Assembly: GCA_038818725.1 (NCBI GenBank)
Contig: JAWAYL010000003.1
Location: forward strand, 1,791 to 65,790
Direction: 5' to 3'
DNA: 64,000 nt
DNA from: Thermoplasmatota archaeon
Lineage (GTDB): Archaea > Thermoplasmatota > E2 > UBA202 > JdFR-43
A program made the translations under genes and the position numbers. Position 1 is the stretch's first letter. Every line of letters begins with the position of its first letter. The notes beneath the pieces were generated by a model, which saw only the letters and a program-made list of their open reading frames with translations, did not search any database and was not told the DNA's origin. Below are positions 26,286 through 54,011 of the stretch, piece by piece.

Positions 26286-26313
26286 TTATTTATACTAAAT
26301 TTATTTTTCTTGT

Positions 26314-26398
26314 GCAGGGGTAGCCAAGCCAGGCCAACGGCGCAGGACTTAAGATCCTGTGGTGAAGTCCTTCGAGGGTTCAAATCCCTCCCCCTGCA
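26314..26398 (+). tRNA. tRNA-Leu (anticodon TAA), intron-less, long variable arm
   Basis: Acceptor GCAGGGG/CCCCTGC plus A73. Anticodon arm CAGGA-CTTAAGA-TCCTG. T-arm GAGGG-TTCAAAT-CCCTC. Confidence 0.85.
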
Positions 26399-26437
26399 TT
26401 TTCGCTAAGTTTTTATATCATTAAAATTTTCTATCCA

Positions 26438-35056: not shown

Positions 35057-35174
35057 GCGGGCGTGATCTAGCTGGTTAGGATATGAGCCTTCCAAGCTCA
35101 ATGCCCGGGTTCGAACTGCAACTTGTCACAAGTTGCTTATTAAAGCAAGTTGCTTGAAAATCCCGGCGCCCGCA
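35057..35174 (+). tRNA. tRNA-Gly (anticodon TCC) with a 45-nt intron in the T-loop (35116-35160, about position 59/60)
   Basis: Acceptor GCGGGCG/CGCCCGC plus A73. Anticodon arm TGAGC-CTTCCAA-GCTCA. T-stem CCGGG...CCCGG interrupted after TTCGAA by CTGCAACTTGTCACAAGTTGCTTATTAAAGCAAGTTGCTTGAAAA. Confidence 0.75.
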
Positions 35175-35858: not shown

Positions 35859-37328
35859 TTGTATTTCATTTCAATGAAATTTGATTTGAAATGCAGCATT
35901 ACTACAAGCAAGGAAATAAAAAAAGAAGAGCTTGCTCATTTTTTCAATAACCTTACAATTGATGCAAAAATGGAATGGGATGCAAAAGAAAATAAAATTT
36001 TTTTAAGAATAATTTCTGAAAAAAGGAGAAGTCATGAGTGGGCTTTAAGAATAGTAAAAAAGCTTGAAGAATTTCTTGGAAAAATGAAAATTGGAATAAG
36101 GGATTTGCATCTTGACAGATATGAAATTGATTTTGAATTAGATAAGGAGCCATTAAAAAGTGTATCAATTCCATTTGCTGAAGTTGAAATAAAAGATAAG
36201 AAAGTAAAATTAATTATTTCTGATAAAGGAGAGGAATTTTTAAGGGAAAACTATGCTGATAGAATAATAAAAAGAATAAAAGAAAAAATAGATGCTCAAT
36301 ATTATGAAGGCAAAAAAGAATACTGGCATTTAGTCTGGCAAAGTGAGGAAAAAAAGGAAGCATGGAATAAAGATCCTTCTGAGGAAATGCTCAATTTGGG
36401 ATGGATAAAGTTGATGGGCAAAGGCAAATGGTTTTATTTCCCGCCAGCCGCAGCCATCATGCGGGCGATGGAAAGAATTGCAATAAATGAAGTAATTGCT
36501 CCCATTGGCTTTTCAGAGATAATTCAGCCAATGCATGTCTCATTTGATACTTGGCTTAAAACCGGGCATCTTGAAGGAATGCCAGGAGAAATTTATTATA
36601 TATGCGAGCCGAAGAGCAGGGAAGCGAGGGAATGGGAAAATTTTGTTGATTTAATTAAAATAAAAAGAGAAGTAAGCGATGAAGAGCTAATTAAAAATTT
36701 AAAGCCGCCAAAAGAAGGAGTTTGCTATGCCCAATGTCCAAATATCTATGCTTCTTTTGCTGGAAAGACAATTGCTGAAGAAAGTTTACCATTGCTTATA
36801 TTTGATCATTCCACTCCTTCAGATAGATATGAAGCAGGGGGCAAGCATGGTATTGAAAGAGTTGATGAATTTCATAGAATAGAAATTGTATATATTGGAA
36901 CAAAAGAACAACTTATAGAAGTAAGAGAAAAACTTATGGAGAGGTATAGATATGTGTTTGACAAAATACTTGATTTGGAATGGAGAATGGCAAAAGTAAC
37001 CCCTTTTTATTTACAGCAGGCTGGCATAACCGCTAGCGAGGAAGATGAAATAAAAGGAACAATAGATTTCGAGGCATATTTGCCTTATAGAGGGGATAGA
37101 AGCAAAGAATGGCTTGAAATACAGAATATTTCAATAGTTGGAGATAAATATGTAAAAGCATTTAATATAAAGGCCCAGAAAAGTGAGTTATGGAGTGGTT
37201 GCTCAGGAATTGGCTTAGAAAGATGGACAGTTGCATTTCTTGCTCAAAAAGGGATAGAGCCAGAAAAATGGCCGCAAGGTTTTAGAAGATATTTGCCAAA
37301 TTTACCAAAAATGCCAAAATTTTTGTAG
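35859..37328 (+). CDS. Class II aminoacyl-tRNA synthetase-like protein, resembling the atypical methanogen-type seryl-tRNA synthetase (or an amino acid:carrier-protein ligase homolog)
   Basis: Motif-3-like SGCSGIGLERWTVAFL near the C-terminus, with Cys adjacent as in the Zn-dependent mSerRS. Motif-2-like EPKSREAREWENF. About 489 aa with a charged N-terminal domain. Confidence 0.5.
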   Translation: MYFISMKFDLKCSITTSKEIKKEELAHFFNNLTIDAKMEWDAKENKIFLRIISEKRRSHEWALRIVKKLEEFLGKMKIGIRDLHLDRYEIDFELDKEPLKSVSIPFAEVEIKDKKVKLIISDKGEEFLRENYADRIIKRIKEKIDAQYYEGKKEYWHLVWQSEEKKEAWNKDPSEEMLNLGWIKLMGKGKWFYFPPAAAIMRAMERIAINEVIAPIGFSEIIQPMHVSFDTWLKTGHLEGMPGEIYYICEPKSREAREWENFVDLIKIKREVSDEELIKNLKPPKEGVCYAQCPNIYASFAGKTIAEESLPLLIFDHSTPSDRYEAGGKHGIERVDEFHRIEIVYIGTKEQLIEVREKLMERYRYVFDKILDLEWRMAKVTPFYLQQAGITASEEDEIKGTIDFEAYLPYRGDRSKEWLEIQNISIVGDKYVKAFNIKAQKSELWSGCSGIGLERWTVAFLAQKGIEPEKWPQGFRRYLPNLPKMPKFL

Positions 37329-42957: not shown

Positions 42958-42997
42958 TCTTTTCTTTATGCTTTACATAAATAAAAATTTTGGGAAG

Positions 42998-43113
42998 GGC
43001 CCGGGCCGGGATTTTCAAGCAACTTGCTTTAATGCGCAACTTGCACAAGTTGCAGTTTGAACCCGGGTCAAGGGATCCACAGTCCCTTATGTTACCGCTA
43101 CACCACCCAGGCC
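42998..43113 (-). tRNA. tRNA-His (anticodon GTG, encoded G-1) with a 44-nt T-loop intron (plus-strand 43012-43055)
   Basis: Reverse complement reads G-GCCTGGG...AGGGA-CTGTGGA-TCCCT...CCGGG-TTCAAA-[CTGCAACTTGTGCAAGTTGCGCATTAAAGCAAGTTGCTTGAAAA]-T-CCCGG-CCCGGGC-C. Confidence 0.75.
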
Positions 43114-52309: not shown

Positions 52310-52762
52310 ATGGAGAGAACTTTTTTAATGATAAAGCCAGATGGGGTGCAAAGAAGATTAGTAGGTAAAATTTTGCAGAGAATAGAAGAGTGTGGTTTCA
52401 AAATAGTTGCAATGAAATTATTGAAAATATCTCGGGAGATGGCTGAAAAGCATTATTCAATACATAAAGGAAAGGATTTCTTTGAAGGATTGATAAATTA
52501 TATAACCAGCGGACCAGTTGTTGCAATGGTTGTTGAGGGAAAAGATGCGATAGAAAGATTAAGAAAAATTGTTGGTTCAACAAATCCAAAAGATGCGATG
52601 CCTGGAACAATAAGAGGAGATTTTGCCCAAGATATAGGAAGAAATATAATACATGCAAGTGATAGCAAAGAAACAGCGGATAAGGAAATAAAACTTTGGT
52701 TCAGCAAAGATGAAATAGTTGATTATATAATGGATGATGAAAAATGGCTTTTTGAGGATTAA
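52310..52762 (+). CDS. ndk: Nucleoside diphosphate kinase
   Basis: ERTFLMIKPDGVQRRLVGKI..., active-site NIIHASD; 150 aa. Confidence 0.9.
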   Translation: MERTFLMIKPDGVQRRLVGKILQRIEECGFKIVAMKLLKISREMAEKHYSIHKGKDFFEGLINYITSGPVVAMVVEGKDAIERLRKIVGSTNPKDAMPGTIRGDFAQDIGRNIIHASDSKETADKEIKLWFSKDEIVDYIMDDEKWLFED

Positions 52763-52848
52763 ATTTATATATTTTGCTAATAATATATTTTAGCTCCATC
52801 TCGAAGGCCTCTATGATAAATGAATAGAGGAGCAAACGTGGAGCAACA

Positions 52849-52906
52849 GCGGCATCACGGGCCCCTGCGCGATTAGTGAGCGTAAGGTCAACCCAGGTGC
52901 CGCACA
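52849..52906 (+). ncRNA. Candidate single-hairpin H/ACA-like guide sRNA (speculative)
   Basis: 69% GC island in a ~33% GC genome. Closing stem GCGGCA...UGCCGC is followed immediately by ACA. Internal GCGC-GA-UUAGU-GA-GCG resembles a K-turn/K-loop cap. Overlaps the last codons of panE. Confidence 0.3.
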
Positions 52907-53787
52907 CTCTCATTTGCTTTTATTAAGGCATATATAGTTTCATTTATACACGCATTTATTCCATGTTTTTTTGCTCTCCTTATTATTTCTCCAATTATCT
53001 CATCTACTTCTGTTTTCTTTCCAGAAATTATATCTTGGAGCATTGAAGAAATGTTTTCTGATGTATTTATTGCAACTTCCTGCGCTTTTTTTATTATTTC
53101 CTCGTCTATTTCAATTCCCTCTGCTTTTGCAACTTCAATTCCTTCCATGCAAATTTTTTCCATTAAATATTTTGTATATTCATTTCTAACCAATTCCCCA
53201 TTTTTACATCTTAAAATAGATGTTAAGCCATTAATTGCTGAATTTACTATTGCCTTCTTCCATTTTTCTTTTTTAATTTGGTTGCTTATTTTTGTTTCAA
53301 TTCCACATTCATTAAATGCTTCGCAAATCTTTTTTATCCTTTCACTAATTTCTCCGTTCATCTCTCCTATTATCGTTTCTCCCCTGCCGGCATGATATAT
53401 TTTTCCATTTTCGAGAAATATTACTCCATGAGTAGTTGTTGCTCCAATAACATTTTCAACGCCAATTTTTTCCGCTATAATTTCCTCATTTCTTAATCCA
53501 TTCTGAATTGAAATAACAGGAATTTTTCCAAATTTTCCTAAAATTTCATCTATTGCAAGCTTTGTATCATATGCTTTTGTTGCAAGAATAACAAAATCAT
53601 ATTTGCTTCCATCCCATCTTGTTTTAGGATAAAAAATCCCTTCAGTAACCCCTTCTATTTTCAATCCCTTTTTTTCTATTTCCTCGATATGCTTTTTTCT
53701 CCCAACAAGCAAAACATCATTCTTTCTTGAAAGAAGCCCGCCAAACAATGAGCCGATTGCTCCCGCTCCAAATATTATGAATTTCAT
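52888..53787 (-). CDS. panE: 2-dehydropantoate 2-reductase (ketopantoate reductase, PanE/ApbA)
   Basis: MKFIIFGAGAIGSLFGGLL Rossmann N-terminus, KPR-like length and C-terminal helical domain. Confidence 0.75.
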   Translation of the reverse strand: MKFIIFGAGAIGSLFGGLLSRKNDVLLVGRKKHIEEIEKKGLKIEGVTEGIFYPKTRWDGSKYDFVILATKAYDTKLAIDEILGKFGKIPVISIQNGLRNEEIIAEKIGVENVIGATTTHGVIFLENGKIYHAGRGETIIGEMNGEISERIKKICEAFNECGIETKISNQIKKEKWKKAIVNSAINGLTSILRCKNGELVRNEYTKYLMEKICMEGIEVAKAEGIEIDEEIIKKAQEVAINTSENISSMLQDIISGKKTEVDEIIGEIIRRAKKHGINACINETIYALIKANESVRHLG

Positions 53788-53891: not shown

Positions 53892-54008
53892 AGCGGGCGT
53901 AGTGTAGTCTGGTATCACATAGCCCTGCCACGGCTATAACCCGGGTTCGAACTGCAACTTGTGCAAGTTGCGCATTAAAGCAAGTTGCTTGAAAATCCCG
54001 GCGCCCGC
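53892..54008 (+). tRNA. tRNA-Gly (anticodon GCC) with a 44-nt T-loop intron (53951-53994) identical to the tRNA-His intron
   Basis: Acceptor GCGGGCG/CGCCCGC plus A73. Anticodon arm TAGCC-CTGCCAC-GGCTA. T-stem CCGGG-TTCGAA-[intron]-T-CCCGG. Confidence 0.75.
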
Positions 54009-54011
54009 ATC

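Follow-up and report, generated by a model that had tools for sequence, protein, structure and literature searches.

tRNA genes in the window

The window, that is, the whole 64-kb stretch of DNA that was analyzed, contains four tRNA genes, three of which are interrupted; the sole intact one is tRNA-Leu(UAA). The genes and their parts are as follows.

35057-35174, + strand: tRNA-Gly(UCC), whole interrupted gene, read from the sequence
35057..35115, + strand: 5' exon of tRNA-Gly(UCC), nucleotides 1-59, with the acceptor, D arm, anticodon arm with TCC and a 4-nt variable loop (sequence; ARAGORN on the spliced form)
35105-35109, + strand: 5' strand of the Gly(UCC) T stem, CCGGG
35110-35115, + strand: Gly(UCC) T-loop, UUCGAA
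35116..35160, + strand: predicted Gly(UCC) intron, 45 nt, position 59/60, first base (i1) C at 35116 (folds, motif searches)
35118-35126 and 35145-35153, + strand: GCAACUUGU and GCAAGUUGC, which pair as the intron helix
35129-35136, + strand: additional internal copy of CAAGUUGC in the Gly(UCC) intron
35155-35158, + strand: intron UGAA, pairing with T-loop UUCG (35110-35113)
35159-35160, + strand: final two A of the intron, which with U60 form the 3' bulge
35161..35174, + strand: 3' exon of tRNA-Gly(UCC), with U60, CCCGG, acceptor CGCCCGC and discriminator A
42997-43113, - strand: tRNA-His(GUG), G-1 encoded (sequence; the spliced form is a 72-nt tRNA-His; fold)
43012-43055, - strand: predicted His(GUG) intron, 44 nt, position 59/60, TTCAAA-CTGCAACTTGTGCAAGTTGCGCATTAAAGCAAGTTGCTTGAAAA-TCCCGG
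53893-54009, + strand: tRNA-Gly(GCC) (sequence; the spliced form is a 73-nt tRNA-Gly(gcc))
53952-53995, + strand: predicted Gly(GCC) intron, 44 nt, position 59/60, same as the His intron
26313..26399, + strand: tRNA-Leu(UAA), uninterrupted comparator, T arm GAGGG-TTCAAAT-CCCTC (ARAGORN, Rfam)

Up to the T-loop the tRNA-Gly(UCC) gene reads GCGGGCG-TG-ATCT-AGCTGGTTA-GGAT-A-TGAGC-CTTCCAA-GCTCA-ATGC-CCGGG-TTCGAA, and from the insert on it continues as CTGCAACTTGTCACAAGTTGCTTATTAAAGCAAGTTGCTTGAAAA (45 nt, 35116-35160)-T-CCCGG-CGCCCGC-A, with a 7-bp acceptor stem and the anticodon loop CTTCCAA (anticodon TCC). An earlier reading of this DNA (the sequence-only reading) had described a tRNA-Gly(TCC) with a 45-nt insert in the T-loop, and the T arm that it quoted matches the sequence exactly. 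The unspliced gene was not called by ARAGORN, nor by Rfam at the gathering threshold; in E-value mode Rfam scored it at 24.1 bits against a gathering score of 29, with the T arm skipped in the alignment. When the 45 nt were removed in silico, ARAGORN returned a full 73-nt tRNA-Gly(tcc) with stems of 7, 4, 5 and 5 bp. Neither program gave a better intact model that keeps the insert, and a Gly tRNA intact without splicing was rejected, since ARAGORN left the unspliced Gly genes uncalled and the Rfam score was sub-threshold.

The run of A residues at the junction permits the cut to be written as 57/58, 58/59 or 59/60. Only 59/60, where the sequence-only reading had approximately placed the insertion, is compatible with bulge-helix-bulge (BHB) geometry. 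A motif search recovered the hairpin GCAACTTG-TCA-CAAGTTGC at 35118-35136 and a second copy of GCAAGTTGC at 35145-35153, both of which had been noticed earlier, and dinucleotide shuffles gave a chance expectation of 0 matches for these repeats. Read from the sequence, the Gly(UCC) intron lacks any stretch of four or more T at which archaeal RNA polymerase would stop and contains no C/D-box or other guide-RNA motif; Rfam gave no match besides a partial tRNA match. Group I and group II self-splicing introns were rejected, the inserts being 44-45 nt long against a ribozyme core of a few hundred nt.

The Gly(UCC) intron of the sequence-only reading stands, and that reading overlooked the same intron in the tRNA-His and tRNA-Gly(GCC) genes of the window. 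The presence of this intron in two additional tRNA genes is a more interesting fact than the Gly(UCC) intron by itself. The introns of His and Gly(GCC) match at 44 of 44 positions, and the 45-nt Gly(UCC) copy departs from the 44-nt form only in the loop (TCA vs TG) and in a 2-nt linker (TT vs GC). The Gly(GCC) copy, uncalled by ARAGORN and Rfam, was found by searching with the 3' part of the intron. For the His gene, ARAGORN proposed a 71-nt tRNA-His (43042-43112) which we rejected, as its 3' half is built from intron bases, and the Rfam match (43060-43112) is likewise wrong at its 3' end. Run on the spliced forms, ARAGORN gave perfect cloverleaves for all three: Gly(tcc) of 73 nt, His(gtg) of 72 nt and Gly(gcc) of 73 nt. 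All three interrupted genes have the T-arm sequence CCCGGGTTCRAATCCCGG in common. For annotation, this means that the two programs overlooked two of the three interrupted genes and misplaced the 3' end of the third; since such genes are overlooked or wrongly delimited, genomes with introns of this kind will seem short of essential tRNAs.

Host genome and assemblies

The aIF2-gamma protein of the host is identical to one labeled Candidatus Thermoplasmatota archaeon, and those of its near relatives are labeled Thermoplasmata, Thermoplasmatales or Thermoplasmatota. The G+C content is about 34%, and that of the tRNA exons about 62%. A literature search found no mention of the assembly accessions.

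The sequences derive from metagenome assembly, and two short contigs (L122 and L148) have odd junctions in or beside tRNA-Gly that may be assembly artefacts, so that a chimeric join, a collapsed repeat or a binning error has to be weighed as the source of the inserts. The Gly(UCC) and His locus is, however, identical in two NCBI metagenome-assembled genomes (MAGs), GCA_038843325.1 and GCA_038863095.1; the Gly(UCC) intron and its 3' flank also occur in a third, GCA_038858035.1 (contig L122, JAWCFY010000094.1), and the 3' part of the intron lies at the end of a Logan contig (L123). With the locus identical in two MAGs and shared with a third and partly with a Logan contig, we conclude that it is not an assembly artefact. 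The inserts moreover occupy three separate single-copy contexts with differing flanks and have a structure that is exactly BHB-compatible, and an artefact is exceedingly improbable as their explanation.

On its reverse strand at about 300-440, L122 is the same as the window from nucleotide 31 of Gly(UCC) on, intron included. Upstream of nucleotide 31 it carries unrelated AT-rich sequence, and the 5' part of the tRNA is absent from its 3.7 kb. This junction may be an assembly chimera, a real rearrangement or a tRNA fragment.

Two further features of the window were recorded. The gene at 35874-37328 (+) encodes a methanogen-type seryl-tRNA synthetase (SerRS), with Pfam domains tRNA_bind_4 and tRNA-synt_2b, a PRK00960 score of 485 bits that is below the NCBIfam cutoff of 611, and the NCBI label 'aminoacyl-tRNA ligase-related protein'; SerRS of this type is common to many Thermoplasmata MAGs. 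Between the NDK and ketopantoate reductase genes, at 52737-52937 (+) with a G+C-rich island at about 52800-52915, lies an Rfam match to HgcG/Pab40, an H/ACA-box sRNA (55.5 bits, E = 2.6e-12), sub-threshold against a gathering score of 77. This element is probably an H/ACA guide sRNA belonging to the host, an AT-rich thermophile.

Predicted folding of the precursors

The 118-nt Gly(UCC) precursor has a minimum free energy (MFE) of -43.8 kcal/mol (z = -3.47 against shuffles) and folds into the cloverleaf arms with an extended T arm; the acceptor and anticodon stems are kept, and the D stem is one base off the canonical 10-13/22-25 pairing. Read inward, the extended T arm begins with the T stem, CCGGG:CCCGG, after which the 3' strand bulges by three bases (A-A-U60); UUCG(A) then pairs with (U)UGAA, the 5' strand bulges in turn, and the 9-bp GCAACUUGU:GCAAGUUGC helix follows. 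It is the second copy of CAAGTTGC, not the first, that the 9-bp helix uses, in keeping with the earlier proposal that the repeats form the helix of a relaxed BHB; a local hairpin using the first copy is weaker (-15.1 kcal/mol). The order of T stem, AAU bulge, UUCR:UGAA helix, 5' bulge and 9-bp helix was obtained by folding for all three window genes.

The register that yields the correct mature tRNA is 3-4-3, namely A58-A59-C(i1), UUCG:UGAA and A-A-U60; here a 4-bp helix separates two 3-nt bulges on opposite strands, and in each bulge the splice site follows the second base. A strict hBHBh' motif, in which an outer helix abuts each bulge, is absent from all three copies: just past the 5' bulge there is a U-U mismatch (35117/35154 in Gly(UCC)), which detaches the lower helix from the bulge. 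For Gly(UCC) a competing register with a fifth pair, A58-U, reaches -20.2 kcal/mol against -18.1 for the 3-4-3 register. Because of this mismatch, and because the 5-bp register is 2.1 kcal/mol more stable, the window motif is slightly relaxed, with BHB-like structure present at both Gly(UCC) junctions. By analogy with the established BHB geometry (PMC4090602), on which our reading of the T arm is based, the 59/60 motif would be the T-arm counterpart of the canonical 37/38 anticodon-loop motif.

Splicing endonuclease

No endonuclease was found among the window ORFs checked (5 against NCBIfam and 20 more against Pfam; Pfam table, about 20 kb of L120). Using the endonuclease gene on a relative's contig as query, we found a 314-aa EndA (P0279) encoded by GCA_038843325.1 and GCA_038863095.1, in the same assemblies as the locus and on a contig other than the one that carries it. 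P0279 has two tRNA_int_endo (catalytic) and two tRNA_int_endo_N stretches. Among PDB entries it best matches the A. fulgidus alpha'2 homodimeric EndA (residues 23-306, E = 2e-28), relative to which its C-terminal (catalytic) repeat has no large insertion. These features identify P0279 as a predicted two-unit (alpha'2-type) splicing endonuclease.

Enzymes of the alpha'2 and alpha4 types have been described as cutting only strict or canonical BHB motifs (PMC4033280, PMC3239211, PMC5829648). The near-strict motif modeled for the window genes appears consistent with this limitation of alpha'2 enzymes; given the same published restriction, processing of a slightly relaxed motif by an alpha'2-type enzyme would not be guaranteed.

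The splicing endonuclease gene is followed, about 7 kb downstream, by a Tpt1/KptA-type RNA 2'-phosphotransferase gene (PF01885; L151 17558-18187, GCA_038843325.1 JAWBSB010000002.1), in an archaeon that is expected to use RtcB-type ligation.

Distribution and covariation of 59/60 inserts

Species-representative genomes were scanned for tRNA-Gly(UCC) genes with 16-46 nt after TTCRAA, which gave at least 119 loci; seven intact tRNAs and three other spurious or mis-delimited matches were left out of the genome tally. Inserts at 59/60 of Gly(UCC) occur in at least 52 genomes labeled Thermoplasmata or Thermoplasmatota and, among the matches listed, also in Woesearchaeota/Nanoarchaeia, Micrarchaeota and Aenigmarchaeota (DPANN) and in several Asgard groups. 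T-loop introns in Gly(UCC) are thus common in Thermoplasmata, DPANN and Asgard genomes. The earlier opinion that a 59/60 intron is unexpected in a euryarchaeon-like context does not agree with this distribution, nor with the introns published for ARMAN-2 (PMC3239211).

T-loop nucleotides 54-57 are fully paired with intron positions -6 to -3 in 84 of the 114 matches listed that are not intact tRNAs, a set that includes the window's Gly(UCC) gene and three spurious matches. Over 72 distinct T-arm/intron-end sequences from other archaea, among the matches listed, the central helix is 92.4% paired; at these junctions the pair of base 57 with its partner is G-C in 50, A-U in 12 and G-U in 3. The observed covariation was reached by 0 of 500 shuffles, slid control registers pair at 26-73%, and the raw table of G57/A57 against C/U gives a Fisher p of 5e-14 (among the matches listed). 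An origin of the central helix by target-site duplication of TTCGAA was rejected, as T-loops with A57 pair with U, unlike the product of a duplication.

Some of the scanned genomes also have 59/60 inserts in Gly(GCC), Val(GAC) and Glu(CUC), as found with a custom scanner and ARAGORN on the spliced candidates. The 59/60 introns of such genomes are mutually unlike, as with Gly(UCC) and Gly(GCC) in Borrarchaeota or Gly(UCC) and Val(GAC) in Jordarchaeia. By tRNA sequence, the nearest to the window's Gly(UCC) gene among the matches listed are L114 (identical exons, 45-nt intron) and L037 (30-nt intron), and the introns of both align only loosely with the window intron family.

At several loci (L008, L019, L021, L028, L029, L033, L052, L085, L090, L097, L101 and others) the sequence that precedes the anticodon stem does not resemble a tRNA, and many DPANN/Borrarchaeota Gly(UCC) genes probably carry further introns besides the 59/60 one. 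Two contigs labeled as bacterial, L067 (Paceibacterota bacterium) and L103 (Campylobacterales bacterium), have archaeal-type Gly(UCC) genes with 59/60 inserts, L103 having in addition a Glu(CUC) gene with a 59/60 insert; both contigs are probably archaeal and were mis-binned into bacterial MAGs.

Filled, short and empty sites in close relatives

The window shows no synteny with the 119 pattern-derived loci, and homologues of aIF2-gamma, SerRS and EndA were therefore used to reach its relatives. GCA_014361195.1 is 92% identical to the window genome in aIF2-gamma and 87% in SerRS, and shares the order NDK-ApbA-tRNA-EamA-S6e-aIF2g with the window. Its tRNA-Gly(GCC), between ApbA and EamA (contig L141, 8236-8308), is uninterrupted and is base for base the predicted spliced product of the window gene, which supports the intron reading. 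Its tRNA-His (contig L146) has exons identical to those of the window and a 29-nt insert at 59/60, ATGCAGCTTGCCTGCAAGTTGCGTGGAAA, a one-hairpin relative of the window intron that lacks the extra CAAGUUGC copy; its sequence permits a 3-4-3 register, with a weak 4-bp helix that is open in the MFE fold. In a second relative (L147, ERZ27247220 k141_152604; SerRS 90%) tRNA-His is uninterrupted, with identical exons. The same tRNA-His exons thus occur in three states, with a 44-nt insert (window), a 29-nt insert (L146) and none (L147), and over the three close relatives the intron load is 0/3, 1/4 and 3/4 of the sampled tRNA genes.

A metagenome scan with the triple-repeat pattern of the intron gave 17 matches, of which one, a 1.5-kb contig (L130), was relevant; the other 16, of which ten came from Ga0307507 and several lay in GC-rich contigs, were rejected as repeats that have nothing to do with the intron. 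L130 carries a tRNA-Ser(CGA) whose 50-nt intron is of the same family, has the same three repeat copies as the window intron, and in its MFE fold forms a strict 3-4-3 BHB whose lower helix is 14 bp long. Since the T stem of this gene, GCAGG/CCUGC, differs from that of the window genes, the intron family is not bound to one T-stem sequence.

The tRNA slot adjacent to PurN holds Gly(UCC) in the window (35057-35174) and uninterrupted Pro(GGG) and Gly(CCC) genes in the relatives (L146 9119-9301, L147 9115-9299), and the gene upstream of it encodes a 468-aa repeat protein in the window and is PAPS-reductase-like in the relatives. This slot is a case of local turnover of tRNA gene content. On another contig beside PurN, L148 (Logan SRR8554444_6834, 1-95), at least 74 nt of AT-rich non-tRNA sequence end in AAATAGAAAA and are followed by TCCCGGCGCCCGCA, which is only nucleotides 60-73 of tRNA-Gly; L147, which has the same SerRS protein as L148, has an intact tRNA-Gly(CCC) at that place. 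The L148 junction could be a longer 59/60 insert, a tRNA fragment or an artefact.

Nature and origin of the inserts

Three near-identical copies with internal inverted repeats, present in some genes and absent from those of close relatives, might be the traces of a MITE-like non-autonomous element or insertion scars, the three genes then being pseudogenes whose function is supplied by copies elsewhere, and such backup copies were looked for in part of the genome only. The inverted repeats are, however, internal and not terminal, the flanking bases show no target-site duplication, and neither the 64 kb nor about 20 kb of further sequence from this genome yielded a copy outside a tRNA gene; a scan of viral contigs with the intron's 3' part gave 0 matches. 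The exons are intact, being identical to the intronless orthologues in sequence, and each time the insert lies exactly at 59/60 and supplies the complement of nucleotides 54-57 and two extra bases, as BHB geometry demands. The Gly(UCC) insert at this site is, moreover, kept across the 52 or more Thermoplasmata and Thermoplasmatota genomes counted above, and tRNA-His(GUG), one of the genes that would be lost, is normally single-copy in archaea. A set of insertions into pseudogenes is very unlikely.

From the direct observations (the sequence, its fold, the restored cloverleaves, the covariation, the empty orthologous sites and the endonuclease gene), the inserts are very probably EndA/BHB-type introns at 59/60, predicted to be spliced by the endonuclease of the genome and copied recently between tRNA genes. 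They appear to be introns of a known kind that were gained, copied or lost recently in a Thermoplasmatota lineage.

The introns might instead be old and vertically inherited, with gene conversion keeping the copies alike and precise losses accounting for the intronless relatives, so that there would have been no recent spread. The Gly(UCC) 59/60 intron is indeed clearly ancient and widespread, the L114 and L037 introns show a loose alignment with the window family, and the T arm shared by the host genes could support conversion. Such a history would nevertheless require independent precise losses from Gly(GCC) in L141 and from His in L147, and the intron load climbs from 0/3 through 1/4 to 3/4 over three close relatives. 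In addition, homogenization is not the rule, as the 59/60 introns that share a genome in other lineages differ from one another. We consider this history unlikely, and suggest that the three window copies reflect recent copying between tRNA genes; at the His site the change could be either a gain or a precise loss.

Proposed splicing and spread

The Gly(UCC), His and Gly(GCC) precursors are predicted to be spliced as follows, with Gly(UCC) as the example. The 5-bp T stem would take the role of the anticodon stem, and T-loop nucleotides 54-57 (UUCG) would form the 4-bp central helix with the UGAA near the 3' end of the intron. A58-A59-C(i1) would be the 5' bulge and A-A-U60 the 3' bulge, with GCAACUUGU:GCAAGUUGC closing the motif. 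An alpha'2-type endonuclease would cut after the second base of each bulge, and an RtcB-type ligase would join the exons to give a normal 73-nt tRNA-Gly(UCC).

Because its pairing partner in the exon is the nearly invariant UUCR of the T-loop, the intron would bring with it all else that is needed and would fit any tRNA, which may be why the 59/60 position is favored. This fits the near-identical copies in Gly(UCC), His and Gly(GCC) and the family copy in Ser(CGA). The most likely route of copying is at the DNA level, with the shared T arm allowing ectopic recombination or gene conversion; an RNA-mediated route is also possible.

The extra CAAGUUGC copy is dispensable for the BHB and is conserved in the 44/45-nt form. 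We raise, tentatively and as a rather doubtful extension, the idea that the 44/45-nt element is currently or was very recently mobile, a self-contained portable BHB cassette able to colonize position 59/60 of any tRNA. If so, an ordinary alpha'2-type endonuclease would still be able to splice the cassette, and the extra CAAGUUGC copy might have a role in the spreading step or in the excised RNA. The relatives with 0/3, 1/4 and 3/4 interrupted genes would then form a natural time series showing how archaeal tRNA introns are gained outside the Crenarchaeota.

Comparison with known systems

Introns at 59/60 have been published for ARMAN-2 (PMC3239211) and for Thermoproteales (Sugahara et al. 2008, as cited in PMC4090602). 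Like the predicted introns of the window, they occupy the T-loop site, are spliced by protein, and have a (relaxed) BHB built with the T-loop. Those organisms have broad-specificity epsilon2 or (alpha-beta)2 enzymes, whereas the window genome has an alpha'2-type enzyme most like that of A. fulgidus, a type that is generally said to accept canonical motifs only; the window differs also in having a near-strict motif rather than hBH, and one intron in three genes. Compared with the canonical 37/38 intron (hBHBh', EndA, RtcB), the geometry is identical, with the T arm in place of the anticodon arm; what the exon contributes to the central helix is the invariant T-loop UUCR at 59/60 and the tRNA-specific anticodon loop at 37/38.

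In Thermoproteales, transposition has been proposed as the source of similar introns that occur in different tRNAs (Fujishima 2010, Mol Biol Evol 27:2233, as presented in PMC4033280 and PMC4090602). As those accounts present it, the likeness to the window lies in very similar introns across tRNA identities within a single genome, interpreted as a recent acquisition at the DNA level. Set against the same accounts, the window differs in its Thermoplasmatota host, in using the T-loop site only and in having three copies within 64 kb, and its lineage offers empty orthologous sites and a 29-nt variant in relatives.

Heterogeneity of the tRNA-Thr(GGU) locus has been reported in Caldiarchaeum subterraneum (Sugahara et al. 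2012, PMC3293823). There, as in the window lineage, the presence or number of introns varies among population members or close relatives, and tRNA fragments lie nearby. A 1.8-kb recombinase-encoding element is implicated in Caldiarchaeum (PMC3293823), whereas none was seen beside the three window genes.

The main evidence so far on how archaeal tRNA introns are acquired has been intron similarity in Thermoproteales. What is new here is a Thermoplasmatota host with an alpha'2-type enzyme, recent copying at 44/44 identity, exactly empty sites and a short variant. With identical introns across tRNA identities, exactly empty sites in sister genomes and a shorter variant, the window lineage provides a cleaner case.
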